DNA of 64,000 nucleotides from a virus (IMGVR_UViG_3300007639_000002:15144-79143); one strand, 5' to 3'. Numbered from the stretch's first letter, positions 26,890 through 42,893 are shown. Translations and numbers: made by a program. Notes: generated by a model not told the origin, from the sequence alone.

Positions 26890-26899
26890 ATCTACTAGT

Positions 26900-29542: not shown

Positions 29543-29842
29543 TTAGTCTTCTTCATGAACCATAATTGGTATTTTTTCAATACCTAAATCACGAGCCACA
29601 ATTGCTCTATGGTGACCATCTATTAATAGGTTTTTTTTAAGAGACACACTAAGTGGAACTTTAATACCTTCATTTTTAATGGAATCATGGAGTGAGTTAT
29701 ATCGTTCACTATCGTGTTGAAAGATATTTTCAACGTCTAATTCCCCAATTGTGTAATCTTTGCCAGAAGGGTCATCAATTTGCATATCCCTAGAAATGAG
29801 ACCACGCAGTTGCTCTTGATTAATGTGTTCGTGTGCTGCCAT
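29543..29842 (-). CDS. ParB N-terminal (ParB/Srx) domain protein
   Basis: L.DSIKNEGIKVPL...LIDGHHR..A..LG..KIP; no HTH seen. Confidence 0.75.
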   Translation of the reverse strand: MAAHEHINQEQLRGLISRDMQIDDPSGKDYTIGELDVENIFQHDSERYNSLHDSIKNEGIKVPLSVSLKKNLLIDGHHRAIVARDLGIEKIPIMVHEED

Positions 29843-30020
29843 ATACCTAGTATAGGGCTATCTAGGCGTTGTTTTTTGGTTAGCGGATTTTTGGAATAGG
29901 GCTATTGGGCCACTGGGCTGCTAGAGGGGGGTGGGTCCTGCCGGGCCACCCAGTAGTAGCGGCGACTTAACCATGGGGGGTATCCACAGTATAGCACCGC
30001 TACCTTACTGGTCACGAATC

Positions 30021-30215
30021 CTAGGCGAGTAACAACTCCCTGTGCTTCCGAGCCACTTCCATGTCTAACAGGTTCACCAGTGCATGAGCCAGTACGTCGT
30101 ACTCGGCTTCACGCCCTGCTAAGACTGCGCCAATATCATCCACCATTGTCTGCATCACATCTACCAATGCGACTGCTGTAACCATTTGCTTGCTGAGTTG
30201 TTTTGTTGTTGTCAT
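30021..30215 (-). CDS. Cassette ORF, hypothetical (MTTTKQ)
   Basis: Leaderless ATG 6 nt after TAAGGT; TAG lies inside the repeat. Confidence 0.7.
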   Translation of the reverse strand: MTTTKQLSKQMVTAVALVDVMQTMVDDIGAVLAGREAEYDVLAHALVNLLDMEVARKHRELLLA

Positions 30216-30254
30216 ACTGCCACCTTACCATGTCCCTGCTGGGAGTCACGATTC

Positions 30255-30446
30255 CTAGATTTCCTCTTCCCAGTCTGAGTTCAGGCGCTCCAATGCCCGC
30301 AGTTCCTCCGCCACATCAAATGCAGTAGCGCATGGTGTGCAGAAGTATAACTCAGTGAGCCACCTGTCCGAGTACATAGGCTCGTGCGTTGGGCTAGGTA
30401 TTGGAGCGTTGCATTCAACGCAGGTGTTTTGTGTTGTCGTTGTCAT
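30255..30446 (-). CDS. Cassette ORF, CxxC...CxxC zinc-finger protein
   Basis: CVEC and CTPC; leaderless start. Confidence 0.7.
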   Translation of the reverse strand: MTTTTQNTCVECNAPIPSPTHEPMYSDRWLTELYFCTPCATAFDVAEELRALERLNSDWEEEI

Positions 30447-30490
30447 GCTTCCAACCTATCACATGACCCTCTCAGGTCACGATTCCTACA

Positions 30491-30511
30491 TAATGAGAAT
30501 GATTCTCAACT
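30491..30511. promoter_or_regulatory. Fur/Zur-family-like box
   Basis: 7-1-7 palindrome TGAGAAT-G-ATTCTCA (30494-30508). Confidence 0.4.
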
Positions 30512-30513
30512 AA

Positions 30514-30529
30514 TGTTCCACGTGGAACA
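30514..30529. promoter_or_regulatory. parS-like site 2
   Basis: TGTTCCACGTGGAACA. Confidence 0.75.
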
Positions 30530-30549
30530 TTCCTAGAGTTGGGGCTATA

Positions 30550-30565
30550 TGTTCCACGTGGAACA
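30550..30565. promoter_or_regulatory. parS-like site 3
   Basis: TGTTCCACGTGGAACA. Confidence 0.75.
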
Positions 30566-30623
30566 TTGGTGCGGAGCGTAGGCAGGTATCCACCTACCCA
30601 CACCCACCCAGCCATTGCTGGCA

Positions 30624-30785
30624 CTACTTGGGAGCACATGATGCCCAGTGCTCCAATGCCCACTCTGCCCATGCGTTATGATCCAATGCCCACATATCCA
30701 GCGTGACAGTCTCGTCACAATAAACGCAGTGAGCGTTCAAGTACTGTGGGCATTCCATGTCGTTGATGTTCTGTGTTGTTGTCAT
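30624..30785 (-). CDS. Cassette ORF, 53 aa Cys/Trp-rich
   Basis: Hand-translated MTTTQNINDMECPQYLNAHCVYC...WASCAPK; below the ORF-track cutoff. Confidence 0.6.
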   Translation of the reverse strand: MTTTQNINDMECPQYLNAHCVYCDETVTLDMWALDHNAWAEWALEHWASCAPK

Positions 30786-30824
30786 GTAACCAACCTATCA
30801 TCTAGTGGCTCTGAGTCACGATTC

Positions 30825-30992
30825 CTAGTCCCTGTATTCTTGGGCGTTGTTGTAGTGATATAGAGCCATGGCGTACTGTTGCTTTTTCAGGTCTGCGTAT
30901 TTGCAAACCTCTGCCCTGTCTGCGTATTTCTTGGACAATCCCATGTAGTAGTCGTATTGCTCTTTATTGGTAAATTGTTTTGTTGTTGTCAT
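30825..30992 (-). CDS. Cassette ORF, 55 aa
   Basis: MTTTKQFTNKEQYDYY...; TAG inside the repeat. Confidence 0.65.
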   Translation of the reverse strand: MTTTKQFTNKEQYDYYMGLSKKYADRAEVCKYADLKKQQYAMALYHYNNAQEYRD

Positions 30993-31031
30993 GTCTCCAA
31001 CCTATCACGCCACCCACGTGAGTGACGAATC

Positions 31032-31226
31032 CTAGATAAATATATTCTGATACTCATTTTGCGCATAGTACTCAGTGCGTAACCTTTCAGCACTGTTCAT
31101 GAACCTACCCTCAGCCCGTGTTAGACCATAGGTGTACTCATGTGCCTTTAATGCATTCATCAGGTCTTCCAAAGCCTGCATTATTTTGATCTCAGTATCT
31201 GATAGTTGCTGTTGCGTTGTTGTCAT
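31032..31226 (-). CDS. Cassette ORF, hypothetical
   Basis: MTTTQQ; leaderless start; TAG inside the repeat. Confidence 0.7.
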   Translation of the reverse strand: MTTTQQQLSDTEIKIMQALEDLMNALKAHEYTYGLTRAEGRFMNSAERLRTEYYAQNEYQNIFI

Positions 31227-31265
31227 GCTTCCACCTTACCCTAGGGTCACCTTTGGTGACGATTC

Positions 31266-31433
31266 CTAGAACCTTGTATCTGTCACTGGGCGAACCTGCA
31301 TATCCCTATGGCTGAGCCAATAGACGTTGCAGGCTTGGCGACTGCCGACCATGACTACACACTTACGTGAAGAGTCATAGACTTCATGTGCTTTAGTGCT
31401 GGGCTTTACCTTTTTCATTTGCGTTGTTGTCAT
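31266..31433 (-). CDS. Cassette ORF, 55 aa basic protein
   Basis: MTTTQMKKVKPSTK...; TAG inside the repeat. Confidence 0.6.
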   Translation of the reverse strand: MTTTQMKKVKPSTKAHEVYDSSRKCVVMVGSRQACNVYWLSHRDMQVRPVTDTRF

Positions 31434-31472
31434 ATCCACACCTTATCAGGTCACCCTGCTGGGTCACGAATC

Positions 31473-31721
31473 CTACTTCAGCATTGCTTTCAGTTCAGCC
31501 TTCACCACACGTGCCGTGTCTCCACGCCATGCAGATGCATTGCTGAGGAAATAGGCGACGATATCCCTAGCGGAGTCGTACCCATATGAGCCACTGATAG
31601 AGTCCAGCGAACGCATAGCGTCTAGGTACGGCACAGCACCAAAGTATGGCTTTTTCCAGTCTGCACTAATGTCACGTGCAATGGTTGATATTGGGCGATG
31701 TTGTTGTTTTGTTGTTGTCAT
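31473..31721 (-). CDS. Cassette ORF, phage hypothetical protein
   Basis: RPISTIA..I..DW...YFGAVPYLDAM...WRG..AR.VKAELK. Confidence 0.7.
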   Translation of the reverse strand: MTTTKQQHRPISTIARDISADWKKPYFGAVPYLDAMRSLDSISGSYGYDSARDIVAYFLSNASAWRGDTARVVKAELKAMLK

Positions 31722-31760
31722 GTAATTACCTTATCAGTTAGTCGGGTTAGGTCACGAATC

Positions 31761-31970
31761 CTAGATGTTATGTCCATCTAGTTCAGTTATTTTGGCGATT
31801 GCCAAAGATAGTACAGGCTTCAGCCCTAAGAGGAACATCCACACGCCGATCATCTCAGTGCGTAGTTCATCATCCTTTAGGGCATCTTCCACGGCAGTGT
31901 TCCATTCACCGAGCCTGCCCAGTACTTCTAATGTTGATGGTAGTGGTTTGGTTGTTGTTGTCGTTGTCAT
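31761..31970 (-). CDS. Cassette ORF, hypothetical
   Basis: Leaderless ATG at 31970 (TAAGGT-N6). Confidence 0.65.
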   Translation of the reverse strand: MTTTTTTKPLPSTLEVLGRLGEWNTAVEDALKDDELRTEMIGVWMFLLGLKPVLSLAIAKITELDGHNI

Positions 31971-31979
31971 GTTCACACC

Positions 31980-32171
31980 TTACCAGCCTGCTGGCTCTAG
32001 TGACGATTCCTGATGCTCTTCTACTAGGTTGTCGTAGCACCATGTGCATACGTCAGTTCCCCAGTCTTCAGGGTCAAATCCATTATGCCCATCCACGATA
32101 GGGATCAGCATAGAAGATGCTCCACACCGTTCGCAGGCTCCGATATAAATGTTGTTGTTGTTGTCGTTCAT
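31980..32171 (-). CDS. Cassette ORF, zinc-finger-like
   Basis: CERC and CTWC; reads through the repeat and stops in the next -10 box. Confidence 0.6.
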   Translation of the reverse strand: MNDNNNNIYIGACERCGASSMLIPIVDGHNGFDPEDWGTDVCTWCYDNLVEEHQESSLEPAGW

Positions 32172-32210
32172 GTAATCACCTTACCACCTAGGAGCGTTAG
32201 GTCACGAATC

Positions 32211-32444
32211 CTAGATACCTTTCATATCGCAGATGTAATTGTGGCGAGCGTCAAAGTACCAGTCAGACTCTTGAAAGGCTTGCTCGTCGCTGGGCGTTCC
32301 ATCCTGTGCATATGCCATGAACTCTGCCCAGTTATCTAGGTAGTCGTCAGAGCCAATGTAGGACTCTTCCCATTCTTCTATATCTTCAGGTGTTACGACT
32401 AATTTAGCCGATTCCATGTCTTCCACAGATGTGTATGTGAACAC
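32211..32444 (-). CDS. Cassette ORF, very acidic protein
   Basis: Leader AACAACGACAACAACGGAGG and GTG start; D/E-rich. Confidence 0.65.
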   Translation of the reverse strand: MFTYTSVEDMESAKLVVTPEDIEEWEESYIGSDDYLDNWAEFMAYAQDGTPSDEQAFQESDWYFDARHNYICDMKGI

Positions 32445-32503
32445 TATGTGCCTCCGTTGTTGTCGTTGTTGATAGTTCTAACTTAGCACGTCACCCTGCT
32501 GGG

Positions 32504-32683
32504 TCACGAATCCTGCCGTGTGTCCATGTTCCACAGAATGCACTTAGCATCTTTTAAGATGTTGTATAGATTCATCTCTTCCCATGTCATGCCATAGTAC
32601 CCATCACGCTGGGTCAAATCAGCCATGAACATAGTAAGCGTTTCATACATTTCAGTGTTGGTTATTTTCTTTGCTGTTTTCAT
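32504..32683 (-). CDS. Cassette ORF, 59 aa
   Basis: MKTAKKITNTEMYET...; stops at the TGA within TCGTGAC. Confidence 0.6.
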   Translation of the reverse strand: MKTAKKITNTEMYETLTMFMADLTQRDGYYGMTWEEMNLYNILKDAKCILWNMDTRQDS

Positions 32684-32722
32684 ATCTTCACCTTACCATG
32701 TAGTCGGGTTGAGTCACGATTC

Positions 32723-32799
32723 CTAGTGGGTATATTTGGTTAGATTAGCCTCAATATACCAGTGAGGTGCTTTCCCCGCTAACCATGCGGGTTTTCGTT
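32723..32799 (-). ncRNA. Candidate double-pseudoknot RNA cassette
   Basis: Own cassette promoter, no credible ORF; both hairpin loops are complementary to consecutive segments of the 3' tail. Confidence 0.6.
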
Positions 32800-32838
32800 A
32801 ATCCCAACTTACCATGATGGAGTGTTGGGTTACGATTC

Positions 32839-32907
32839 CTAATAAAGGATGGCATTCAATGCCTTAGGAGGTGTCATGAATGCCACCCTCTATTAGTTGT
32901 CGTCGTT
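32839..32907 (-). ncRNA. Candidate hairpin sRNA with anti-SD loop
   Basis: Own cassette promoter; 20 bp stem with two G-U pairs; loop contains CACCUCCU. Confidence 0.6.
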
Positions 32908-32946
32908 AATCCCAACCTACCACGTGGGTAGGCTGGGTCACGATTC

Positions 32947-33372
32947 CTAGAGGCTGATATGCGCTCCTGAGAGCAAGTCTTCAACCTCATTGCGGATGGT
33001 GTCGCTGATGCTGTCACTGAAAGATGAGTTATCAGTGAAATCGTATTCATGGAGGATGTCGTTAATGCGATCCTCCAAAGCATCTACTACTTGGTTCATT
33101 ACCTTGTCACTGATTGCATTGACAAGTTGATTAAGCAATTCTTCCATGGTCATGTTGTTAGTGCCTTTCGTTGTTGTTGATGAGTTCACTTTATCAGGTG
33201 GTTGTACTGAGTCACGATTCCTAGACTCCATGGCGATTTGCTCTTCATGATACTCACGTAATAACTCTACGGTATAGTTCATGTAGATACCCTTTGCCAT
33301 GGCATCTTCTACTTCAGTCTTTGCCATTAGTAAATGGAACACTTTAAGTTGTTGTTGCGTTTCGTTGTTCAT
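32947..33372 (-). CDS. Two cassette ORFs fused in frame (second start at 33153)
   Basis: Repeat and promoter at 33211 lie inside the ORF; internal AAAGG-N-ATG. Confidence 0.6.
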   Translation of the reverse strand: MNNETQQQLKVFHLLMAKTEVEDAMAKGIYMNYTVELLREYHEEQIAMESRNRDSVQPPDKVNSSTTTKGTNNMTMEELLNQLVNAISDKVMNQVVDALEDRINDILHEYDFTDNSSFSDSISDTIRNEVEDLLSGAHISL

Positions 33373-33411
33373 GTAAGCACCTTATCAGGTGACATTGTTA
33401 GGTCACGATTC

Positions 33412-33639
33412 CTAGCGAATCTCTACAACCCTGCCTAAGCAAGTGAGTAAGTTGCCTACGCTCGTAGTGGTTTCCCCTGCCGTGGTGGTGATAACTGCAT
33501 CATCACCCACTACTTCTACAGAGATAACCCTTGTAATGATTGGGCGTGAGACAGGTGTCCATGATGGAATGACGATAAACTCGCCTTCTATAATTTGGTC
33601 AGCCCGTACTGTGAATGCTGGTTGTTGTTTCGTTGTCAT
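33412..33639 (-). CDS. Cassette ORF, hypothetical beta-rich protein
   Basis: MTTKQQ; leaderless start. Confidence 0.65.
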   Translation of the reverse strand: MTTKQQPAFTVRADQIIEGEFIVIPSWTPVSRPIITRVISVEVVGDDAVITTTAGETTTSVGNLLTCLGRVVEIR

Positions 33640-33678
33640 GGTTTCACCTTATCATGTTGAGTTGGTAGGTCACGAATC

Positions 33679-33990
33679 CTAGTATGACCTGAACACGTAA
33701 CCATCAAGTTCCCACACGTCACCACCTAGTTCTAGGTCACGTGCGAATGACTCATAGTCAAAGTATCCAGTTTTGACTGCTTCAGAAAAGATATCGTCTG
33801 CCAACTCTTCAGCGTACTCACGTACTGATGTGACTGCTACGTAGGCATCCTCAAATGCTGATACTTCGCTGTCGTAGTCTTTGGTTATGCCAAGGTTCCA
33901 GCAGTAGATGGCAAAGGCTTGCTCGTCTATGTTGTTGTCTTCTGCTACCTGTGCAATTTCTGCGTTGCTGTATTTATGTGTTGTTTCCAT
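33679..33990 (-). CDS. ardA: ArdA-like antirestriction protein (C-terminal domains)
   Basis: FEDAY...EYAEEL...YFDYESFARDLELGGDVWELDGYVFRSY; acidic. Confidence 0.75.
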   Translation of the reverse strand: METTHKYSNAEIAQVAEDNNIDEQAFAIYCWNLGITKDYDSEVSAFEDAYVAVTSVREYAEELADDIFSEAVKTGYFDYESFARDLELGGDVWELDGYVFRSY

Positions 33991-34029
33991 ACCTGTACCT
34001 TACCCTCTAGTAGTTGTTAGTCACGAATC

Positions 34030-34215
34030 CTAGAACGATGTTCCTACCAGCGCATTATCAAATGTGCGATAGATTACAATGCTCCTAGTTTGGTCTATAG
34101 ATTCCCACATGGATGCCAACCACGTTGGCAGGTGTGCATCATGCAGTGTGCGTATGTACGTTTGGGGGTCACCCTCTAGTTGATATTGTACTTCTACTTT
34201 TTTCGTTGTTGTCAT
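34030..34215 (-). CDS. Cassette ORF, hypothetical
   Basis: MTTTKK; leaderless start. Confidence 0.65.
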   Translation of the reverse strand: MTTTKKVEVQYQLEGDPQTYIRTLHDAHLPTWLASMWESIDQTRSIVIYRTFDNALVGTSF

Positions 34216-34254
34216 GGTTTCACCTTAGCATTCTGAGTTAGTGGGTCACGAATC

Positions 34255-34509
34255 CTACAACTCAAAAGAATGCAGTATCTTAGACGTTTCGTCTTGTGAA
34301 TGTTTATTGGATGTCCAAAAGTGAACCTCTGTACGTGTGTAGATACCACCATGGCACACCATGCCTAGGCGATTACGTGCTTCTTTTTCTGCACGTTCTT
34401 CATTGTCGTAGTCTGCACCACCTACGTAGTCTTCGTTGTTGTCCCAAAAGTGTACTGTGTACCCTGAAGCAATATCTTGATTCATGTTGTTGCCTTTCGT
34501 TGTTGTCAT
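34255..34509 (-). CDS. Cassette ORF, hypothetical
   Basis: MTTTKGNNM: leaderless ATG plus an internal SD-led ATG. Confidence 0.65.
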   Translation of the reverse strand: MTTTKGNNMNQDIASGYTVHFWDNNEDYVGGADYDNEERAEKEARNRLGMVCHGGIYTRTEVHFWTSNKHSQDETSKILHSFEL

Positions 34510-34539
34510 GTAATCAACTTACCACGTGGTGGTGTTAGG

Positions 34540-34905
34540 TCACGAATGCAGTTCCCGCATTTTGACCAACCCAACCTGATAATTGGCGGTATTGGTCAAG
34601 TTAAGCCACCAGCCAGTGACGAATCCATTTTCGTATTCGTCACAGATATGCTCGTTGTATTCGCCATGCTCGGTGAGAAGATCACCCAGTAGTTCGTTGA
34701 TGGATTCCCCTGCCCATTCACCTGATAGTGGTGATGGTGGCATGAAATCGTCGGGGAGATCACACTCGTCATATAGGCGAAGGAACTCTACATATGTTTC
34801 CTGCGTAGTGTTACCGTCAAAGATCCATGATGATGCATTCTTGCCAGCAACTAATCCACGAATGTATGCATCATATGCATCAGTTGTTTTGGTTGTTGTG
34901 TCCAT
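34540..34905 (-). CDS. Cassette ORF, acidic hypothetical
   Basis: PSPLSGEWAGES motif; D/E-rich. Confidence 0.65.
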   Translation of the reverse strand: MDTTTKTTDAYDAYIRGLVAGKNASSWIFDGNTTQETYVEFLRLYDECDLPDDFMPPSPLSGEWAGESINELLGDLLTEHGEYNEHICDEYENGFVTGWWLNLTNTANYQVGLVKMRELHS

Positions 34906-34914
34906 GTGAGTACC

Positions 34915-35139
34915 TTACCCTGCCTTGATGTCCAGTGACGAATCCTGCCATACTTCTTTGTCTTCTTTAAGTTTGTATGCCCATTTGTATGCTGTGTTCA
35001 TTGCTGTCCACATTTGGCTGTATGGGGAATTGAATGAGTCTTCTTGATGAGCGTGTAAGTTGTAGCACACTGATTCCAGTGCATCTATCGCATTAAATAG
35101 TTCTTCAAGTGTCATGTCTTCGTTGATGTCGTGTTTCAT
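34915..35139 (-). CDS. Cassette ORF, hypothetical
   Basis: Leaderless; stops in the next -10 box. Confidence 0.6.
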   Translation of the reverse strand: MKHDINEDMTLEELFNAIDALESVCYNLHAHQEDSFNSPYSQMWTAMNTAYKWAYKLKEDKEVWQDSSLDIKAG

Positions 35140-35178
35140 GTTGTCACCTTATCATTTTGTTGTTGGTAGTCACGAATC

Positions 35179-35688
35179 CTATCCATACACCACCTCACCA
35201 AAGAGAATGAATTGCAGAATGGAGTCTGCTGTGAGAGCGTCGTACCAACCATCAAAGGCATCATCATCGTTGAAATAGATGGCACGTAAGCATTGCAACG
35301 CAGTCTTACCCAGTTGTCCATGGTCAGGTACGTTCTCCTGTGAGAACTCACCTGTGCCTACCTTGACGATAAAATCTATAACCATTTGCTCGTTGATAGG
35401 GTAAGCCTTGCCATAGGTGAACCATTCATCCCAGTCGTTTATTCCTTCTTGAAAACCATGTTCTTTGTTGGCATACAGTGGGTGGGTTTTGTCCACCTCT
35501 GTTACTTCTTCTTCTACGTAGATGGTTGCGCTACAGTACTGATCAGTGTTACCCAATTCGTACTCTCCGTTTGCACTTCCCCATTTGTAGTTCTTGCGAA
35601 TCGCCCAGTACCCACATCCTAGTTCCAAAGCATCTGTAAGAATTGTGCAGGCTCCGTATGTCATTTGTTGTTTATTTGCTGTTGTCAT
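35179..35688 (-). CDS. Cassette ORF, acidic phage protein
   Basis: G.GYWA and C-terminal DA.TAD.ILQ..LFGEVVYG. Confidence 0.7.
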   Translation of the reverse strand: MTTANKQQMTYGACTILTDALELGCGYWAIRKNYKWGSANGEYELGNTDQYCSATIYVEEEVTEVDKTHPLYANKEHGFQEGINDWDEWFTYGKAYPINEQMVIDFIVKVGTGEFSQENVPDHGQLGKTALQCLRAIYFNDDDAFDGWYDALTADSILQFILFGEVVYG

Positions 35689-35727
35689 GTCATCAACTTA
35701 TCAGGTGAGTGTGCTGAGTCACGAATC

Positions 35728-36186
35728 CTACCAACTACTTTGATAGGAGAACTGGTACTCTTCGTCAAGAGACAGCGCATTTTTAATGATGGAAATTGAG
35801 TACTCTAGGCTCTCAAAGTACCACTCGTCGTACTCAATGTTGCCAAAGAAGAAACCACTAGCGGTGGGTAACAGGTCATCGGCAAGGCTATGGTCACCTA
35901 GAACCTGTTCGCAGACGTTCATTAACTCCGCAAGTTTCTCACGTGACACGTATGCATCTTGGCATTCATCTACGCCATCCTGTACGTTGTCCACGAACCA
36001 CTGGTGGATGGCGTTGGCTTTACGCCAGTAGCCCACCATGCACCGTACTGTGATAGATGGATAGTCAGTGTCTAGTTCAATGTCTAATACTTTCCTGACT
36101 GCATGGTACGCTTCATTAACGTCGTCACCGTAGTGTGATGCTGGTGAGAGGTAGCGTTCTGCTTTGAGGTACTGATCTAATCCCAT
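35728..36186 (-). CDS. Phage hypothetical protein (MGLD...YWRKANAIHQWF type)
   Basis: Recognisable motifs including LLPT.SGFFFG and YQSSW; SD AAGGA. Confidence 0.7.
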   Translation of the reverse strand: MGLDQYLKAERYLSPASHYGDDVNEAYHAVRKVLDIELDTDYPSITVRCMVGYWRKANAIHQWFVDNVQDGVDECQDAYVSREKLAELMNVCEQVLGDHSLADDLLPTASGFFFGNIEYDEWYFESLEYSISIIKNALSLDEEYQFSYQSSW

Positions 36187-36259
36187 GTTGTTATCCTTTT
36201 GTTGTTGGTTGTTGTTACTGAAGTTACTTTATCATGTTGTTGTTATGAGTGGCGAATCC

Positions 36260-36332
36260 TGTGGAATACACCGATTTCTACGACTAGGGGAAACAACAAC
36301 GAAACCCTAGGAGCAAACCGATGTACTCCACA
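36260..36332 (-). ncRNA. Candidate long hairpin RNA with a loop antisense to cassette 5' ends
   Basis: Stem GUGGAGUACAUCGGUUU/AAAUCGGUGUAUUCCAC with G-U pairs on the minus strand; inner stem CUAGGG/CCCUAG; loop UUUCGUUGUUGUUUC. Confidence 0.55.
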
Positions 36333-36336
36333 TGAC

Positions 36337-36531
36337 TCACCACTCATGTTCTTGTATAGATAATATCAGCACTAATGCGTTAAACATCAACAATATGCTA
36401 AGAAAACCTAAGAGCAAATTACCTGTATTTTCCATACCACCCATGAACCCAATGCTCAGGATGATAAGAGGCAGAATACAGCGTTTCTTTGTACGTGTCC
36501 AGCGATACCAGTTGGTCACCCTGATCCTCAT
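36337..36531 (-). CDS. Small two-TM membrane protein
   Basis: ATGA-coupled to the upstream ORF. Confidence 0.55.
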   Translation of the reverse strand: MRIRVTNWYRWTRTKKRCILPLIILSIGFMGGMENTGNLLLGFLSILLMFNALVLILSIQEHEW

Positions 36532-36776
36532 AACTCTTCCCCGTTTTCGTCAGTGAAGATCAGGTCAGAGATATCTGTCTGATGACCCCAGCCACATGAA
36601 AAATCATCAGTCTTGGCAAGATGTTCAATGTGCTGAACAACATCGTCTAACGTGATGTCCATGTCTTCATCTATGTCACTATTGAGAGTCCTGATGTCTT
36701 TGATTACGTCGTACACGTCATAAGTTATTACTTTTGTAACGTTGATGTACTTGGGTAGTTCTGTTGTTTCGTTCAT
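36528..36776 (-). CDS. Cassette ORF, acidic hypothetical
   Basis: Leaderless ATG at 36776. Confidence 0.65.
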   Translation of the reverse strand: MNETTELPKYINVTKVITYDVYDVIKDIRTLNSDIDEDMDITLDDVVQHIEHLAKTDDFSCGWGHQTDISDLIFTDENGEEL

Positions 36777-36815
36777 ATCCATACCTTATCTTGTTGTTAG
36801 TGTTAGTCACGAATC

Positions 36816-37217
36816 CTAGATATTGGCTTCCCAGTCAATATCAGAGTCATAAATGTCAATGCCAAAACGTGAGTCCCAACGCCATACTTCCTCAAAGGCA
36901 ACGGTATCTGCACGAACCATTACCCTGCCACGAATGAAACCCTCTTCAGGATTAGTCTCGTCTGCGTTCCATTGTTTCACGTACTCACCTACACACTCGT
37001 ACACGTAGCCCTGTAGGGCATCTACGTGCTGTGGGTTATCTAAACACCATGTGTTTTCTATCACGTCTACGAGCATCCCCATGACCATTAGTTTTGGGTT
37101 GCTTTCGCACATATTTATGATGCGATTGAGCATACGCTCTATTTCGCTTGCTGGTAATACACCATCCCAGTACGCCATGGTTTCTTGCTCGTAGTACAAG
37201 CCTTCACAGCCATCCAT
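36816..37217 (-). CDS. Acidic hypothetical protein
   Basis: TAG inside the repeat. Confidence 0.6.
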   Translation of the reverse strand: MDGCEGLYYEQETMAYWDGVLPASEIERMLNRIINMCESNPKLMVMGMLVDVIENTWCLDNPQHVDALQGYVYECVGEYVKQWNADETNPEEGFIRGRVMVRADTVAFEEVWRWDSRFGIDIYDSDIDWEANI

Positions 37218-37666
37218 TATGCTTCCAAATCTTCTAGTGGGTACAACACCTTACGTGCGTACACTTCTTCAATAGCGTCAAGAAGAACCTCATGGTAGTT
37301 GCTCCATGCTTTTTCATTGGAAATAGCAAACGCTGAAATAATCTCTAGTGTTTCTTTATCAACATCAAAAGCCCATACAACAGAGTCTTTGATATCGGGA
37401 TCGGGAGTACCCCAATGAACTTCTAATTCTTCACGAATAGAGGCAGGTGAGTAACAAACGCTGTTGCTGTAGTTCACGTCACCCCATCCTGTATGGTCAC
37501 CCATAAACTTCAATGAGATGCCATGCTTACGTGCAATGTTAGATATTTCTTCGTCAGAAAATGCTTCTAAGGCTGACTCTTCTGATGTAAGGTCATCAGT
37601 ATCAACGATATAGCAGTTGTCTGCATTAACAATAGTTCCTGATTGTGCGTCAATAAGTAATTTCAT
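37217..37666 (-). CDS. Cassette ORF, acidic hypothetical
   Basis: TAAGGT-N6-ATG. Confidence 0.65.
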   Translation of the reverse strand: MKLLIDAQSGTIVNADNCYIVDTDDLTSEESALEAFSDEEISNIARKHGISLKFMGDHTGWGDVNYSNSVCYSPASIREELEVHWGTPDPDIKDSVVWAFDVDKETLEIISAFAISNEKAWSNYHEVLLDAIEEVYARKVLYPLEDLEA

Positions 37667-37682
37667 AGTTGTACCTTAGCCT

Positions 37683-37925
37683 TCAGAGGCTGTTACTCAC
37701 GAATCCTAGTTTGTCAAGGATAGCGTCACGTACCCATTCAATATCAGGACAAATCTCACATACATCGTACTGATTGCATATTTCTGCCCATGCATCTTTG
37801 GTAAGTACTTCATAATCATCATCGTCATAAAGGCTTGATGCCCATTCGTATGAGTAGATGTCACAACAGATGTCGTCGTCATCTTTTAAGTTTGCGATAA
37901 TCTCTTTTAAGGTTGATACCTTCAT
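37683..37925 (-). CDS. Acidic hypothetical protein
   Basis: SD GAGGA; D-rich. Confidence 0.6.
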   Translation of the reverse strand: MKVSTLKEIIANLKDDDDICCDIYSYEWASSLYDDDDYEVLTKDAWAEICNQYDVCEICPDIEWVRDAILDKLGFVSNSL

Positions 37926-38062
37926 GTTGTTTCCTCTATTAGTTTTTCTAGTTTGTTAATGAGTTCTAGCATTTCATCTGTCAATGGACTGCACCACGTT
38001 GTCTTAACGTTACGTAGTTCTGTCAATAGCAGGTGTAAGCCAAAATCTAATTGCTGTGTCAT
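37922..38062 (-). CDS. 46 aa hypothetical protein
   Basis: Hand-translated MTQQLDFGLHLLL...; ATGA-coupled at both ends. Confidence 0.5.
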   Translation of the reverse strand: MTQQLDFGLHLLLTELRNVKTTWCSPLTDEMLELINKLEKLIEETT

Positions 38063-38340
38063 TGTGTTACCTCTACATTCACTATATTATGAACAGAGCC
38101 TGAGTCACGAATCCTAGAGAACGTGCTACCTTTTGTCGGGTCTGTGCGGATGAAATAGAATGAGTCTGCCCACTGATGGATATCGTCGGCAATGTCTTCA
38201 TTCATGGCGACTACCTGCCCATGCTCATGGTCAATATAGACTGCCAGTTCACCGTCTTCTGTTATATACAATCCGATATACCAATCGCCCATCATTATCT
38301 GTGCGGAGTTATCGGTTTGCTCAATGTAGTTGTTACTCAT
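38059..38340 (-). CDS. Hypothetical protein
   Basis: Reads through the repeat at 38104. Confidence 0.55.
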   Translation of the reverse strand: MSNNYIEQTDNSAQIMMGDWYIGLYITEDGELAVYIDHEHGQVVAMNEDIADDIHQWADSFYFIRTDPTKGSTFSRIRDSGSVHNIVNVEVTQ

Positions 38341-38582
38341 AAACAGAACCCATTACAACGTGGGAATCCGCAGGCTGGGCAGTAAGACTCTTCTTCTTCT
38401 TCTTCTTCGTCTTTTGTGATGCCAAAGATGGTATAACCAGCCTCAACCAAAAGGTCAGCAACTAGGTCTAATGACTCACCATCGGTGTACTCGTACTCTA
38501 GGTCTTTGGGATTAGAACCTTCAACACGCTTTTCTAAGATGTTGATGATTTCTTGAATGAGTTCGTCGTTTGCTGTTGTCAT
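38337..38582 (-). CDS. Cassette ORF, acidic protein with C-terminal Cys cluster
   Basis: MTTAND; poly-E; CPACGFPRCNGFC. Confidence 0.65.
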   Translation of the reverse strand: MTTANDELIQEIINILEKRVEGSNPKDLEYEYTDGESLDLVADLLVEAGYTIFGITKDEEEEEEESYCPACGFPRCNGFCL

Positions 38583-38591
38583 ATCATCAAC

Positions 38592-38873
38592 TTACCATAC
38601 TGGTGGTGCTAGGTCAGGATTCCTGAGAGAAGAGGTATTTGGGATTACGTCACAGTTCATTAAATAAATGGCGTTGCTGAGTAGTGATGAAAGTTCATCT
38701 TCATTGTCAATGTACTCCCCGTCACCAAGATAAGCAACAGACCATTCATGTGTGTCGTTGTGCTGTACTGTGCCGTCAGAGAAATGCTCTTCCTCAGCGT
38801 TAGTATCCCATTCCCACTTGTTGGTGGATGAATCGTATGAGACTATGAAATAGTGTGTATGGTTTCCGTTCAT
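38592..38873 (-). CDS. Acidic hypothetical protein
   Basis: Start at MNGNH (ATGA coupling, GAGG SD). Confidence 0.55.
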   Translation of the reverse strand: MNGNHTHYFIVSYDSSTNKWEWDTNAEEEHFSDGTVQHNDTHEWSVAYLGDGEYIDNEDELSSLLSNAIYLMNCDVIPNTSSLRNPDLAPPVW

Positions 38874-39031
38874 TGTGTTACTTCCTCTATGTCTGTTGTG
38901 TTCCATGTTTCTTGCTCGTCTACACACCATGACTCGTTGCTGTCAAAGAGTTGTTTAGCCTGTTCAATGCTGTCGGCATCTACTTCGTGGCGGTAGTGAG
39001 TTACTTTTTCGTATGTGAGTGTGTACTTCAT
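38870..39031 (-). CDS. DpnD/PcfM-like small protein
   Basis: MKYTLTYEKV...EVDADSIEQA. Confidence 0.45.
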   Translation of the reverse strand: MKYTLTYEKVTHYRHEVDADSIEQAKQLFDSNESWCVDEQETWNTTDIEEVTQ

Positions 39032-39222
39032 GCTGGTTCTTCCTCTTCTACATCTTCTACATCCCATGGAGTGTTCCACTCACGAAAGCCCCACATATCT
39101 TTTGACTCTAAATCGTCATCTGTGAACTTATCGTAAGCCTCTAGCGCACCCTCTTCTGAGTCTGCTTTAATTTCGTAGCAGTGGCTAATTACTTCATCTA
39201 CACGTACTAAATAAGTTTTCAT
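39028..39222 (-). CDS. DpnD/PcfM-like small protein
   Basis: MKTYLVRVDEV...EIKADSEEGA. Confidence 0.5.
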   Translation of the reverse strand: MKTYLVRVDEVISHCYEIKADSEEGALEAYDKFTDDDLESKDMWGFREWNTPWDVEDVEEEEPA

Positions 39223-39282
39223 GTTGTTCCTTTCGTTGTCGTTATTTACAACTTACCATTAGAAGTGTGTTGGTCACGAATC

Positions 39283-39702
39283 CTACGTAGCGTCACTCAT
39301 GACGAATGCCGATACACAAGCCTGCTCGTACTCTTCTGCATTGCGTACCCCATAGAAGAAATGGTCACCAGCACCTGTAGTAATCTCTGCCCACGTCATC
39401 AGTGAGTCTGTTGTGATGTCTCCATTGTCTAGGATCACTGTTCCCCACATAGCGTCGGCAACAGACATGACGTACTCTTTAATGTTTTCAGCCATATCAA
39501 AATGATCTACGTAGTCAATACGCCACCTGCCTTCACAGGGGAACCCACTCTCTAGGTCTACTGGCTCATTCTCATTGGCAGGTATAAACCCCACAAGTGT
39601 AATGTCATCTACATTCTCCACCAGCATTGCTAGGCGGTCATACTTTTGGTTAGAGTCCGATGGCACTACGCACCTCTTCTTCGCAGGCTTCACGTGCTTC
39701 AA
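39283..39702 (-). CDS. Acidic hypothetical protein (start uncertain)
   Basis: TAG inside the repeat; 5' end overlaps the neighbouring gene. Confidence 0.55.
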   Translation of the reverse strand: MKHVKPAKKRCVVPSDSNQKYDRLAMLVENVDDITLVGFIPANENEPVDLESGFPCEGRWRIDYVDHFDMAENIKEYVMSVADAMWGTVILDNGDITTDSLMTWAEITTGAGDHFFYGVRNAEEYEQACVSAFVMSDAT

Positions 39703-40249
39703 TGTATGCGTTGTCTACACGCTCCCACATGGTGTCCATGTCAGTATCCTCAAAACTACCCTCTACCGTGATGTTCTCTGTGAACGAAGAATGCCATTGA
39801 CCGTCATGGTATGAACTAGCACCTGCAAAGCCCATGCCCTGCTCGTCATAAGACAAAACAAACTTAAAGTTTGGATACAACGTAGAGATATGCTCAAAAG
39901 CCTTTTCGGGTGGTGCCCATGCTGAGTTGAAGTAAAACGAACGGTAGCCGATGTCTTCGCCACCCATCTCAGTATCGTAATCACCCCACTTGGTTCCCCA
40001 GTTGTCACAACACCAGTCGTACCAATCCTTGTGACCGTACTTGGCGATGTTCGCCTCTTGTTGTATGCGATGCTCTTCTGCTTTATCTGCACCCATGAAG
40101 CCTGCCACTGTCTCGTATAGTTCTGTAGGGCAAGGGTAAAGAGAACGTATGATCTTTATACGCCCGTCTACTGTGATGTCTTCTACAAACTTCTGTAGTG
40201 CTAATTCGTTACCCCATACGTAGAGGTTATTACTGCAATCGTTAGGCAT
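39650..40249 (-). CDS. DUF1281/YubB ferredoxin-like protein
   Basis: MPN.C.N, WYDWCCDNWGTKW, F.SAWAPP, Y.E.GMGFAG. Confidence 0.75.
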   Translation of the reverse strand: MPNDCSNNLYVWGNELALQKFVEDITVDGRIKIIRSLYPCPTELYETVAGFMGADKAEEHRIQQEANIAKYGHKDWYDWCCDNWGTKWGDYDTEMGGEDIGYRSFYFNSAWAPPEKAFEHISTLYPNFKFVLSYDEQGMGFAGASSYHDGQWHSSFTENITVEGSFEDTDMDTMWERVDNAYIEAREACEEEVRSAIGL

Positions 40250-40583
40250 TTACTTTCCAATCTTCTATGATGCGGTTATTTTTCATGTCTTTTACAAGTA
40301 GGCGTACCCACTCAGACGTATTTGCAAATCCAACTTCTTCGCCGTCGTCGTACTCAACTGGGTACACGGTGACCATGATGTTTTCATCACCGAACTCATC
40401 GTTATAGTCCCATGCAAAAGTGTTGAAATCAAAAGCCAAATCCCCGATGATGATAGATTCCCATGCATCTTCGTCGCCAGTGAACTTACGGCGAGAACGG
40501 TGATTCTTCTTAAGTATCTTGTAAGCGTGTTTCATTAACGCTTTTTTATTTTGTTTAATGTCTTGAAGAGTTGATGTTTTCAT
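40242..40583 (-). CDS. Cassette ORF, hypothetical
   Basis: TAAGGT-N-ATG leaderless start. Confidence 0.6.
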   Translation of the reverse strand: MKTSTLQDIKQNKKALMKHAYKILKKNHRSRRKFTGDEDAWESIIIGDLAFDFNTFAWDYNDEFGDENIMVTVYPVEYDDGEEVGFANTSEWVRLLVKDMKNNRIIEDWKVNA

Positions 40584-40622
40584 ATATGCACCTTATCATT
40601 GAGAGTGGTTGAGTCACGAATC

Positions 40623-40829
40623 CTATTGCTGTTCAATAAGAAAAGATGGGCGTTCAATAGTTGAGTGAGTACCCTCTACGACTGTGATGCCGTAGTGAAC
40701 TTCACCCCAACCTAAAATGTCTGTAGGGTCATTGCCTAACAATGCTTCGTACACAAGGTCTTGTGCCTGCATTTCGTTCTTGGCTTTGACAAAGTATGTT
40801 CCTGTTGCTGTTACTGTGTAGTAGTTCAT
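40623..40829 (-). CDS. Cassette ORF, DpnD/PcfM-like
   Basis: MNYYTVT...VKAKNEMQA. Confidence 0.5.
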   Translation of the reverse strand: MNYYTVTATGTYFVKAKNEMQAQDLVYEALLGNDPTDILGWGEVHYGITVVEGTHSTIERPSFLIEQQ

Positions 40830-40858
40830 ACCGCCACTTTAACTCACGTGATGGCTGA

Positions 40859-40882
40859 GTCACGAATCCTAGGAATCGTGAC
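40859..40882. promoter_or_regulatory. Back-to-back divergent cassette promoters sharing CCTAGG
   Basis: gtcacgaatcCTAGgaatcgtgac, with a -10 box on each side. Confidence 0.85.
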
Positions 40883-40928
40883 TGAAGCAGGTAGAGTGCT
40901 AAGTTGTGTTTATGGAAAGGGACAACAC

Positions 40929-42818
40929 ATGAATGGTCTTACACCACGACAACAACGTGAAATACGTGAAGAACTAGACAAACGTCTTACGCCATTAGAA
41001 ATGGTGAACTGCGTTGATGACTGGATTACGTTGAACGAACTTGACAGGCTTACCTTTAGGGGAGCCTCTGAGTTACTTGACTATATCGCACGGTTGCCTG
41101 TAGAGAGGACTCCTGCGTTAGCGCACGTTCCATCTACCGCCACCAAGATCATCGTCAATAGCGCACGAGGGGTTTGTGCGTTATGTGACGAAATGGTAAC
41201 GGCTGGGCAGGGGCATAAAGCCTTTGTCAATGGGGCATGGAGTGTTTATCATGCCGTAGACGTTTGCCCTGCCGTTACCGTGACTCCTGTCGTTACATAT
41301 TCGTCGGGCTTGCGTAAGCAACTTGATGATTTTGTACAAACGTTAGACAAGACAGAGCCACCGATTCTCCCTGATGAATCATTATTTAATCTTTCTAATG
41401 CACACCAATTTGACATAGATTTTGATCTTGAATTACCGCTATTGGGGTACCAAAAGGCGGCGATTGAATATGCACGTCGTACTCACCGTACCCTTGTATG
41501 TCAAGACATGGGGTTGGGTAAAACGCCTATCGGCATTGCCCTGACTCATATTGCTCTTAATGAGGGTCACAAGGTGTTAGTGGTTGTACCGCCAAACCTT
41601 GTCTACCAATGGACATCGGAGTTCAAGAAGTTTGCTCCATGGATTAAGGTGGGCAGTGTACGTGGGCGTAAGGTCGGCAAGTTGCCCAAGACGGATGTAC
41701 TCATTATCGGGGACTCCATCGTTGAGGCATGGCAGAATGTCCTTGCGGAAAAGTACACCAGCATCATTGTTGATGAGGCACACCGCTTTAAGACTGAATC
41801 CAGCGGGCGTTCTAAGGCTCTGACTCGTATTGCATCGTTTGTTCCCAAGGATGGATACTGCGTTCTGCTATCGGGAACCATCATTCCTAACCGCCCATCG
41901 GAGTTCATATCGCCACTGCGTATCATTGGCAGGCTTGAGCCTGTATTCGGTACTAAGAAGCAGTTTCAGATTAGGTACTGCGATTATCAGATGGTCAATG
42001 GGTTTCCTGTGACGGGTGGAGCCAGCAACGTGACAGAGTTAAATACTTTGTTGCGTAGCACGTGCTACACACGTACCAAGAAAGTAGATGTACTAGATGA
42101 CCTGCCACCTAAGCGCAGGGCACAACTAGACGTAGAACTAACTGAGACATCCATGCGTAAGTACCGTAAGGCTGAGGAGGATTTCCTTGCCTTTGTGTAC
42201 GAGAACTATGGGAACGATGCTTTTCTCGCTGCATCCAAAGCACCTGTGATTACACAGATAAATAAACTCAGGCAACTACTGGGTGAGGCAAAGATAGATT
42301 CTGCAAAGGAGCACATACAGTCCTTACTGGACTCAGGTGAGCAGGTCATTGCCTTTGCGTACCACACCAATGTCCTGAAGACTCTCAAAGAGCATTTTGA
42401 GGATCAGGGCGTAGTGATGGTTGCCGGTGGTATGACCGCTGAGGCTAAAGACAAGGCTGTGCAGAAGTTCACTAGCGGTGAGGCACGACTGTTCTTAGGT
42501 CAGTACGAAGCAGCCTCAGTAGGTCTTAACCTACAGGTCGCCAGTCACGTGGTCATGGTTGAGATGCCATGGTCACCTGCTACTGGTTCACAGGCAGAAG
42601 ACAGGGCATGGCGTTACGGCAACAAGAATGCTGTAGTGGCATGGTGGCTCACTGCCATTGACCCCAATGCCCCCACCATTGACTCACGTATGTGGAGTCT
42701 CCTGAACGCAAAGGCAGAGACCATCTCAGCCTGTTTAGACGGGTGGGGAGAAGACATGAAGGCTGAAGCAGGTAGCATTACCGCCCTGCTACTTCAAGAC
42801 ATGATGAGTGCTTCGTAG
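40929..42818 (+). CDS. SNF2/HARP-like helicase
   Basis: DMGLGKT, DEAH, LLSGT, GLNLQ, QAEDRAWRYG; start MNGLT after SD GGAAAGGG. Confidence 0.85.
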   Translation: MNGLTPRQQREIREELDKRLTPLEMVNCVDDWITLNELDRLTFRGASELLDYIARLPVERTPALAHVPSTATKIIVNSARGVCALCDEMVTAGQGHKAFVNGAWSVYHAVDVCPAVTVTPVVTYSSGLRKQLDDFVQTLDKTEPPILPDESLFNLSNAHQFDIDFDLELPLLGYQKAAIEYARRTHRTLVCQDMGLGKTPIGIALTHIALNEGHKVLVVVPPNLVYQWTSEFKKFAPWIKVGSVRGRKVGKLPKTDVLIIGDSIVEAWQNVLAEKYTSIIVDEAHRFKTESSGRSKALTRIASFVPKDGYCVLLSGTIIPNRPSEFISPLRIIGRLEPVFGTKKQFQIRYCDYQMVNGFPVTGGASNVTELNTLLRSTCYTRTKKVDVLDDLPPKRRAQLDVELTETSMRKYRKAEEDFLAFVYENYGNDAFLAASKAPVITQINKLRQLLGEAKIDSAKEHIQSLLDSGEQVIAFAYHTNVLKTLKEHFEDQGVVMVAGGMTAEAKDKAVQKFTSGEARLFLGQYEAASVGLNLQVASHVVMVEMPWSPATGSQAEDRAWRYGNKNAVVAWWLTAIDPNAPTIDSRMWSLLNAKAETISACLDGWGEDMKAEAGSITALLLQDMMSAS

Positions 42819-42893
42819 GATTCGTGACTACGTACACCCCTGAGATAAAGTAACAATAAGAAAGAGGCAAAGCCTCTCAACCAAAGGAAACAC

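Follow-up and report, generated by a model that had tools for sequence, protein, structure and literature searches.

The DNA analysed here, called the window throughout, is a stretch of 64,000 nucleotides (nt) that comprises bases 15144-79143 of a 79,143-bp IMG/VR virus record (IMGVR_UViG_3300007639_000002, estimated 86% complete). Its minus strand carries an array of tandem, stereotyped promoter-like units, most of which stand immediately before small open reading frames (ORFs), and two further units of the same type are found on the plus strand. Comparison of the units with one another and with those of related phages makes it likely that they are early-type sigma-70-family promoters that produce leaderless mRNAs, and that the same modules double as joints at which gene cassettes are shuffled.

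The core of the unit is a 14-mer, TAGGAWTCGTSACY, which has 25 exact matches in the window and none in 100 shuffled sequences. When up to two mismatches are allowed there are 34 matches (the shuffles gave a mean of 1.9 and a maximum of 7), of which 33 fall within 30010-42829, and no exact copy occurs outside the array stretch across the 79,143-bp record. This agrees with an earlier note made from the sequence alone (the original prediction), which had reported 33 copies over about 13 kb and none noticed elsewhere in the window. As a list of units that count needed amendment in two places: the match at 34628 has no -10 box, lies inside an ORF and was not counted, and a degenerate but complete unit at 34551 (CTGCATTCGTGACC), which escaped the pattern and was found by comparison with a relative, had been overlooked. 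The total of usable units is again 33, all within 29988-42851. The minus strand has 31 of them and the plus strand two (40870 and 42816), whereas the original prediction gave no strand.

The unit is 36 bases long and has the form TAGGAWTCGTSACY-N16-TAAGGT-like. The spacer between the 14-mer and the hexamer is 16 nt in 32 of the 33 units and 17 nt in one (38625). The hexamer is TAAGGT in 16 units, TAAGTT in 7, TAGGTT in 4, TAAAGT in 4, and TATAGT and TATACT in one each, such that T1, A2 and T6 are invariant and the middle positions vary. TG is present at the extended -10 position in 25/33 units, and the predicted +1 base, 6 nt past the hexamer, is A in all 33. In 23 of the minus-strand units this A, exactly 6 nt from the hexamer, opens an ATG, which is the geometry of a leaderless gene, and these ORFs encode 53-169 amino acids (aa). 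In six units a leader of 12-52 nt containing a GAAAGG-type Shine-Dalgarno sequence comes first, and two have no ORF. The order of GTSACY, a 16-nt spacer (17 in one copy), -10 hexamer, 6 nt and start is as originally described.

The hexamer also holds its N16 distance from the motif in the leadered units, which have their separate GAAAGG Shine-Dalgarno, and in the units without an ORF; its position is tied to the 14-mer and not to the ATG. GTSACY, the -35-like part of the 14-mer, is preceded by a conserved 8-nt sequence, TAGGAWTC, at about -42 to -35, and the information profile indicates that these upstream 8 nt are more conserved than either the -10 or the -35-like box. The initial transcribed sequence is A-T/A-G/C followed by a ACAACAAC-like tract, and is common to coding, leadered and non-coding units. 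Positions +4 to +18, the 15 nt after the start triplet, are 84% A+C, compared to 52% for the whole strand.

Each unit can thus be read as a sigma-70-family promoter, in which GTSACY would be the -35-like element with TAGGAWTC as its upstream extension, followed by an N16 spacer usually ending in TGn and by TAnnnT as the -10 box. With the -10 box 6 nt before the ATG, transcription would begin at the A of the AUG, and 23 units would give leaderless mRNAs. The A/C-rich start, ATGACAACAAC, would be a part of the module, and is probably an unstructured translation enhancer of the CA type. The exact N16 distance between GTSACY and TAnnnT is also found in 40 of 40 units from three relatives, and reads as the spacing rule of sigma-70-family holoenzymes. 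To the 23 units here with the 6-nt spacing from -10 box to ATG, the relatives add 29 more. Experiments have validated a TANNNT box close to the ORF, at a constant distance from it, as a mark of leaderless genes, and an added -35 element strengthens it (Deinococcus-Thermus, PMC12340547). In mycobacteria about one message in four is leaderless (10.1101/834739). Translation of leaderless mRNAs is raised by CA repeats after the AUG and inhibited by a 5' untranslated region (PMC9031893). The array resembles the architecture described in these three studies in having a TAnnnT box near the start at a constant distance, in the added -35 element and in the CA-rich sequence after the AUG. It differs in that the known cases are scattered cellular promoters, whereas here there are 23 tandem stereotyped copies in a phage, fused to the stop codon of the upstream gene and apparently acting as recombination joints.

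Since the AUG of a leaderless message has to stand at the 5' end, one promoter would be required for each independently translated gene, giving a periodic array. No intrinsic terminators were found on the minus strand between units, and the 56-nt modules have no conserved fold (mean z = -0.8) and no shared hairpin, so that read-through from one unit into the next is expected. Eleven further starts with leaderless geometry are found elsewhere, before structural and other genes, with other -10 boxes and without the 14-mer. This second class includes minus-strand starts at 5857, 7761, 19622, 22907, 27538, 27862, 28478, 29480 and 29842, with TAAACT, TAGAAT, TATGCT or TATACT exactly 6 nt before an ATG or GTG (the terminase, structural-region genes and a ParB-like gene). 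They are probably middle or late promoters. Since the same geometry recurs with other -10 boxes, leaderless expression seems to be general in this phage, with the 14-mer marking one class of promoter.

The module also closes the gene before it. The upstream ORF stops on the TAG of the motif in 19/27 cases, against one third expected (p = 9e-5); in two cases the stop is the TGA of the motif, and three CAGG variants run on to the TAA of the -10 box. The original prediction had likewise given 19 cases on the TAG, with others on the TGA or the -10 TAA. All three stops, TAG and TGA in the motif and TAA in the -10 box, are in frame with one another and with the next ATG (at +42), and consequently 22/30 unit lengths are multiples of three (p = 9e-6). 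With three in-frame stops in the module, the upstream ORFs terminate within the promoter, leaving no DNA between genes.

The cargo ORFs gave no matches to one another by BLASTP at E < 1e-4, in keeping with the earlier remark that they are mostly unrelated. Differences between the window and the related contig L134 (described below) number 154/125/307 at codon positions 1/2/3, a pattern which indicates that the cargo ORFs are real genes. Towards the helicase end of the array (36261-40625), there are six units with two or three ORFs each, translationally coupled through ATGA-type overlaps. The proposal that every unit has its own promoter therefore holds in the sense that each has what appears to be a self-contained promoter placed for a start at the ATG, while 'one promoter per ORF' is valid only for the rest of the array. 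The plus-strand copies face the plus-strand helicase and DUF932 genes, which share this promoter class, and one of them stands back to back with unit 1 in the style of divergent promoters.

Most cargo ORFs belong to no family. ORF 33679-33990 is ArdA-like (PF07275, 38.5 bits with a cut-off of 27; phrog_2059, 'anti-restriction'), and ORF 39650-40249 has a DUF1281_C domain; a search for loci related to the ArdA-like cassette found none. A role of the cargo in early host takeover or anti-defence, as the original prediction had it, is plausible by analogy, and in the array itself one cassette, the ArdA-like one, speaks for it. The DUF932 gene that shares the promoter lends weak support, and we infer the timing and the function. 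The features are collected in Table 1.

Table 1. Units of the array, the plus-strand units and two genes referred to in the text (positions in the window; the hexamer given is the -10 box).
Feature	Position	Strand	Remarks
Array, 31 tandem promoter units	29988-40871	-	about 44 small ORFs
Unit 1, TAAAGT	40836-40871	-	leaderless ORF 40623-40829; back to back with plus unit 40870, near-palindrome
Unit 2, TAAGGT	40590-40625	-	leaderless ORF 40242-40583; then coupled 39650-40249 (DUF1281_C), 39283-39627
Unit 3, TAAGTT	39250-39285	-	21-nt leader, GAAAGG Shine-Dalgarno; ORFs 39028-39222, 38870-39067, 38592-38930
Unit 4, CAGG variant, sole 17-nt spacer	38589-38625	-	leaderless ORF 38337-38582; coupled ORF 38059-38340
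Unit 5, TATAGT, inside ORF 38059-38340	38081-38116	-	12-nt leader; ORFs 37922-38062, 37683-37925
Unit 6, TAAGGT	37673-37708	-	leaderless ORF 37217-37666; coupled ORF 36816-37217
Unit 7, TAAGGT	36783-36818	-	leaderless ORF 36528-36776; coupled ORF 36337-36531
Unit 8, CAGG variant, TAAAGT	36226-36261	-	33-nt leader; ORF 35728-36186 (diverged block vs L134)
Unit 9, TAAGTT	35695-35730	-	leaderless ORF 35179-35688
Unit 10, TAAGGT	35146-35181	-	leaderless ORF 34915-35139
Unit 11, CAGG variant	34912-34947	-	upstream ORF stops on -10 TAA; leaderless ORF 34540-34905
Unit 12, degenerate motif	34516-34551	-	leaderless ORF 34255-34509; site of 119-bp indel vs L134
Unit 13, TAAGGT	34222-34257	-	leaderless ORF 34030-34215
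Unit 14, TAAGGT	33997-34032	-	leaderless ORF 33679-33990, ArdA-like
Unit 15, TAAGGT	33646-33681	-	leaderless ORF 33412-33639
Unit 16, TAAGGT	33379-33414	-	leaderless ORF 32947-33372; site of extra 299-bp cassette of L134
Unit 17, TAAAGT, inside ORF 32947-33372	33188-33223	-	28-nt leader to in-frame ATG 33153
Unit 18, TAGGTT	32914-32949	-	no credible ORF; predicted transcript with hairpin
Unit 19, TAAGTT, GTAACC variant	32806-32841	-	no ORF
Unit 20, TAAGGT	32690-32725	-	leaderless ORF 32504-32683
Unit 21, CAGG variant	32480-32515	-	upstream ORF stops on motif TGA; 29-nt leader; ORF 32211-32444
Unit 22, TAAGGT	32178-32213	-	leaderless ORF 31980-32171
Unit 23, CAGG variant	31977-32012	-	leaderless ORF 31761-31970
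Unit 24, TAAGGT	31728-31763	-	leaderless ORF 31473-31721
Unit 25, TAAGGT	31440-31475	-	leaderless ORF 31266-31433
Unit 26, TAAGGT	31233-31268	-	leaderless ORF 31032-31226
Unit 27, TAGGTT	30999-31034	-	leaderless ORF 30825-30992
Unit 28, TAGGTT	30792-30827	-	leaderless ORF 30624-30785
Unit 29, TAGGTT	30453-30488	-	leaderless ORF 30255-30446
Unit 30, TAAGGT	30222-30257	-	leaderless ORF 30021-30215; 234-bp cassette missing from L090
Unit 31 (last), TATACT	29988-30023	-	about 140 nt non-coding 29843-29981, conserved in L090 and L178
Plus unit, TAAGTT	40870-40905	+	17-nt leader; SNF2-type helicase, likely start 40929, end 42818
Plus unit, TAAAGT	42816-42851	+	helicase stops on TAG of unit; 42-nt leader; DUF932 gene 42894-43925
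WhiB-like gene	46275-46691	-	host clue; candidate reader of upstream half of promoter
RecA	57795-58823	-	adjoins Cas4/RecB-like exonuclease 56628-57476; candidate recombination apparatus

Several relatives of the array were found. Near-identical contigs are L015/L037 (98%) and L012 (92%). A scan of IMG/VR with the exact motif gave one near-identical contig with several copies, other matches being single and due to chance. The metagenome motif scan again gave mostly chance single matches, and yielded two useful contigs, L134 (7.6 kb, 90% nt identity, 15 units) and L090 (3 kb, 95-98% nt identity). A scan with the strict L041-type pattern matched L041 itself and nothing else. In distant phages, whose helicases are 75-81% identical at the protein level, the exact geometry is kept but each has its own uniform motif: TAGGATTCGYCACT in G004, which has at least 35 units in 13.8 kb and an array end on a second contig (L178), and YAGGATTTGGACAA in G005 and G006. 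Constant across the relatives are AGGATT, N16, TAAGGT and N6, while the -35-like part is phage-specific and uniform within each phage (TCGTGACY here, TCGYCACT in G004, and TTGGACAA in G005 and G006). This uniformity could reflect either a trans-acting reader that co-evolves with its sites or a homogenising gene conversion. No array was found in the complete genomes G001 and G002, whose helicases are 44% and 55% identical, respectively, and the array is therefore confined to a sub-lineage.

The closer relatives differ from the window by whole cassettes. L134 has at 7221-7520 an extra 299-bp cassette, containing a leadered 79-aa ORF, between two promoter copies that share their variable spacer; its counterpart in the window is a single promoter copy, at 33414. 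The 234-bp cassette at 30024-30257 of the window is missing from L090, where the 14-mer at the junction is a chimera, with its 5' part from the copy at 30257 and its 3' part from the copy at 30023. A 119-bp indel relative to L134, by which the window lacks a 44-aa ORF with a CxxC motif, has its junction in the ACAACAAC start/leader tracts. All three cassette-scale indels relative to L134 and L090 thus end inside the promoter/start module. The identity between the window and L134 also swings sharply by cassette, and the block that differs most (ORF 35728-36186) stops exactly where the next motif lies.

Over a larger distance the cargo is largely different. G004 shares only 12 ORFs with the window, in the order BCDFAEGIJHLK as against ABCDEFGHIJKL, and the three-ORF block at 38592-39222 has homologues downstream of the helicase in G001. 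Within the window, 19 pairs of spacers share at least 11/16 positions (0.3 in shuffles), which indicates copying between units. The indel junctions and the permuted order in relatives suggest that cassettes are gained, lost and moved as promoter-to-promoter units, which bears out the expectation that recombination between motifs could change the set and order of the genes. The original prediction was to fall if relatives had an unchanged gene order or indels ending away from the motif, and this comparison does not refute it.

The conserved modules, of about 50 bp, would act as direct repeats, between which homologous exchange or replication slippage could delete, insert or relocate cassettes, a scheme already proposed for the PeSL elements discussed below. 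Direct-repeat exchange might take place on replicating concatemers, as the phage has a RecA and an exonuclease. For repeats only 200-300 bp apart, RecA-independent slippage is a possible route. Excised circles might also be reinserted, which has been proposed for PeSLs too.

Some details of the array ends and of the units without ORFs may be added here. The non-coding stretch of the last unit (29843-29981, minus strand) begins ACCCCCCATGGTTA, and is conserved at 96% in L090 (2748-2926) and at about 70% in a G004-type phage (L178:11882-12057). A single-sequence fold of its transcript was not significant (z = -1.5). The neighbouring ORF-less units at 32949 and 32841 (32751-32949, minus strand) have a common start, GGGATT-AACGA, and predicted transcripts with hairpins.

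The virus is an uncultured contractile-tailed phage, and the array would be an early-type region of accessory genes in it. Pfam and PHROGs scans identified a sheath, T4-type tube and baseplate domains, an SPP1-type portal and a capsid protein, together with a terminase, a family A DNA polymerase, a DpdA-like transglycosylase and the SNF2-type helicase. It also encodes a MerR-type helix-turn-helix (HTH) protein and a WhiB-like (Wbl) protein. The latter matches PF02467 (E = 9.6e-11) and several WhiB PHROGs, and has the cysteine spacing C-X27-C-X2-C-X5-C (a Cys4 signature) and a WGMWGG turn. Wbl proteins are reported to be exclusive to Actinobacteria and their phages (PMC13013590), and on this ground the host is probably actinobacterial; it is probably of moderate G+C, given a value of about 45% for the window. 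A search of bacterial genomes with RecA for a further clue to the host gave one match, to a mis-binned contig of a metagenome-assembled genome. The helicase region had no nucleotide match by blastn among 50,697 deposited phages, in which a protein search gave distant relatives alone (about 30-37% identity). The window has no tRNA genes by tRNA scan and no Rfam matches at the gathering threshold. The reverse complement of part of the motif (CGAATCC) resembles a tRNA T-loop, which is taken as coincidence as no tRNA is predicted.

Several points weigh against the reading of the array as leaderless promoters that serve as recombination joints. The -35-like hexamer is weak, with 4/6 matches to TTGACA, and as the best-conserved part of the unit sits upstream of it, sigma-A by itself may not be enough and a specific factor may be required. 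Some of the signal could work at the RNA level, since TAAGG resembles the 5' part of a Shine-Dalgarno sequence and is suitably spaced from the ATG. The early timing is proposed by analogy, and WhiB is an indirect pointer to the host. On the recombination side, the case for turnover is built on three cassette-scale indels and a single distant comparison, further mosaic boundaries relative to L134 fall within genes, and a 14-mer alone is short for RecA-type exchange.

Another suggestion is that the 14-mer, above all its TAGGAWTC half, is mainly the site of a specific regulator over each promoter, which might be a complex of a Wbl protein with region 4 of sigma-A, another activator, or an array-wide repressor like the stoperators or the phiC31 CIR operators. 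We put this forward as a tentative possibility; it is compatible with the promoter reading, to which it adds rather than replacing it. It fits the high conservation of the upstream 8 nt, and the uniform variant in each relative with its constant AGGATT is as expected for co-evolution with a trans-acting reader, although gene conversion between repeats would yield the same genome-specific uniformity. The phage encodes a WhiB and a MerR-type HTH protein, but these are no more than candidates for a binding or repressor protein. The back-to-back pair at 40858-40883 forms a 26-bp near-palindrome; the 14-mer itself is asymmetric, with no dyad in 31 units. A regulator alone would also leave the fixed N16 and N6 geometry unexplained.

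A related suggestion is that the promoters are read by a sigma factor or RNA polymerase encoded by the phage, and not by the host sigma-A. The unusually strong conservation, the phage-specific motif and the non-consensus -35 hexamer would all be accounted for in this way. However, no such protein was found in Pfam and PHROGs scans of most ORFs of at least 100 aa in the 79-kb record, a scan that was not exhaustive; the bipartite -35/-10 structure with an extended -10 TG is of the housekeeping type, and genes which are presumed to act first would need a factor not yet made. We regard this explanation as improbable.

It is also conceivable that the units are not promoters at all, but that the region is covered by one long transcript, in which TAAGGT is a Shine-Dalgarno sequence 6-7 nt before the ATG and the 14-mer is a signal for processing or coupling at the RNA level. 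TAAGG forms the 5' part of the full Shine-Dalgarno complement, and lies about as far from the ATG as GAAAGG does in the leadered units. TAAGGT is moreover enriched before the ATG, being present in 16/23 leaderless units and 0/10 others (Fisher p = 3e-4), or, when pooled with three relatives, in 35/52 and 3/21, respectively (p = 6e-5). The lack of terminators between units would suit a long transcript, and the related phage G002 does punctuate an array of small genes by hammerhead ribozymes. Against this, the hexamer is invariant at T1, A2 and T6 and not at GG, and leaderless units with TAAAGT and TAAGTT exist. The N16 spacing is kept where there is no ATG or where there is a separate Shine-Dalgarno, and an exact 16-nt gap between unstructured elements is a property of DNA and RNA polymerase. 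The modules have neither a conserved RNA fold nor an Rfam match, and the divergent region would be left promoterless. An explanation purely at the RNA level is thus very unlikely.

The same figures leave room for a double use of the hexamer within the promoter reading. TAAGGT may both position the leaderless start and, on RNA that reads through from upstream, recruit ribosomes to that ATG. The leaderless promoters outside the array stand at the head of their own operons and have no GG in the -10 box. Common descent of the leaderless units could give the same association with TAAGGT, and we consider the double use possible but not probable. A more complete proposal is that the module is a portable unit of expression and exchange, in which the stops would close the upstream gene, TAAGGT would be used in both ways so that each gene is translated by two routes, and AGGATT would be read by a complex of Wbl protein and sigma-A region 4, possibly with the phage's own WhiB. 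As a whole, this is somewhat unlikely.

The name 'integron-like' given to the array in the original prediction implies that the motif is the site of a site-specific recombinase that captures and excises cassettes; although single-gene cassettes with unrelated cargo, bounded by repeats and gained or lost whole at the repeat, do recall an integron, this can hardly be right, since RecA was found as stated but no tyrosine or serine recombinase among the ORFs scanned, the repeat has no attC-like imperfect palindrome or fold, each cassette has its own -35/-10 pair in place of a single cassette promoter (Pc) for promoterless cassettes, and the junctions (one a simple chimera in the repeat, another in a ACAACAAC tract) are as predicted for homology-driven events such as direct-repeat exchange or slippage.

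A number of further observations were made on the relatives and on the rest of the phage. G002 (IMGVR_UViG_3300032233_001072; L164:280-4321, minus strand) has about 9-10 small genes, each after a type II hammerhead ribozyme. Rfam RF02276 gave five matches, with scores of 28-36 bits against a gathering score of 37 (E = 8e-5 to 0.011), and 9 copies show the CGAAAC/GUC/CUGAUGAG cores. Between ribozyme and gene lies CCTGAGGAGG, 6-9 nt before the ATG. This would be a ribozyme-punctuated counterpart of the promoter array, with the same predicted outcome of one 5' end per gene. In G001 (L163:4633-5411), a divergent regulatory region has four copies of a palindrome, GTGACGTTCGTCAC, 200-300 bp apart, which shares TTCGTCAC with the motif of the present array. 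Mosaicism is seen with both genomes: the window has 94% nt identity to G001 over 652 bp (26887-27538) and 87% to G002 over 3.4 kb (17971-21281), and the rest of each genome is far more diverged.

Next to the array, a 99-aa ParB-N-like gene (29543-29842) is directly followed by a perfect, parS-like 16-bp palindrome, TGTTCCACGTGGAACA, at 29525-29540. In L090, the sequence corresponding to 29546-29846 with this gene is replaced by about 1.1 kb (L090:1673-2747) containing three ORFs of 129, 96 and 115 aa, the last of which is a diverged ParB-N paralogue with a DGHHR motif. The structural half of the phage contains a flavin-dependent tryptophan-halogenase-like gene (10640-12127, minus strand; PF04820, E = 3e-105) and a PhyH-type dioxygenase (23939-24724, minus strand), alongside which there are glycosyltransferases at 7771-8829 and 44235-45383.

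Of the known systems, the closest are the PeSLs of T4-type phages, which consist of a repeated strong sigma-70-like early promoter with a stem-loop terminator (Arbiol et al., 2010, PMC2839356; Comeau et al., 2014, PMC4122927). They have the upstream stop codon at the 5' edge and a Shine-Dalgarno sequence and start codon at the 3' edge, are concentrated in front of ORFans where the genome is hyperplastic, give rise to indels and replacements, and can be excised as mini-circles (PMC2839356, PMC4122927). The array shares with them many near-identical promoters of the sigma-70 type (their activity being predicted here) before small ORFans in a plastic region, the upstream stop at the 5' edge of the element, and ends of indels or replacements between close relatives within the repeats; the phage also has a contractile tail with T4-like baseplate and tube domains. 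In contrast to PeSLs, the modules have no stem-loop terminator or attenuator, and 23/31 minus-strand units have no Shine-Dalgarno sequence and a -10 box that abuts the ATG, only six having a leader with GAAAGG. In the array the stop codon is built into the conserved motif, a specific 8-mer stands in place of the AT-rich tract that forms the upstream extension of PeSLs, and the host is probably actinobacterial where those of PeSLs are Gram-negative. Because the stem-loop and the Shine-Dalgarno sequence, two defining features, are both missing, the array is best described as a new variant of the PeSL kind and not as a member.

Dense strong early promoters before small host-takeover genes are also found in the SPO1 host-takeover module and in the early promoter clusters of T4 and T5. 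These produce mRNAs led by a Shine-Dalgarno sequence, unlike the array, and the identity between their promoters is much looser. To our knowledge they have not been documented as recombination joints. Cluster K mycobacteriophages have start-associated sequences (SAS) and extended forms of them (ESAS), which include the core of the Shine-Dalgarno sequence and lie 3-7 bp upstream of the start codon (PMC3203893). The SAS is an asymmetric 13-mer in one orientation before non-structural actinophage genes, with a phage-specific consensus and sometimes with the upstream stop inside it, and in all these respects it resembles the 14-mer. It differs in that the 14-mer ends 28 nt before the ATG, has a fixed promoter spacing from the -10 box, and contains no AGGAG. 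The stoperators of Cluster A (cited in PMC3203893) are repressor sites, not promoters. Integrons likewise consist of repeat-bounded single-gene cassettes with unrelated cargo, but the array has no attI/attC sites. No paper on leaderless promoter-cassette arrays of this kind was found in the literature.

If the promoter reading is right, the need of a leaderless message for an AUG at its 5' end would explain why there is one promoter for each tiny gene, and would tie this to a concrete route of gene turnover in accessory regions. It would extend shuffling of the PeSL type beyond the T4-type phages of Gram-negative hosts to a probable actinophage. Should AGGATT indeed be read by a Wbl-sigma-A complex, the phage would have a private promoter class, and the use of one hexamer as both -10 box and Shine-Dalgarno sequence is a testable hypothesis. 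A module that combines stop, promoter, start and translation enhancer in about 50 bp would be useful for synthetic biology in Actinobacteria. Finally, the roughly 44 small ORFs, including the ArdA-like one, are candidate early host-takeover or anti-defence proteins from a lineage of lake phages that has no cultured member.

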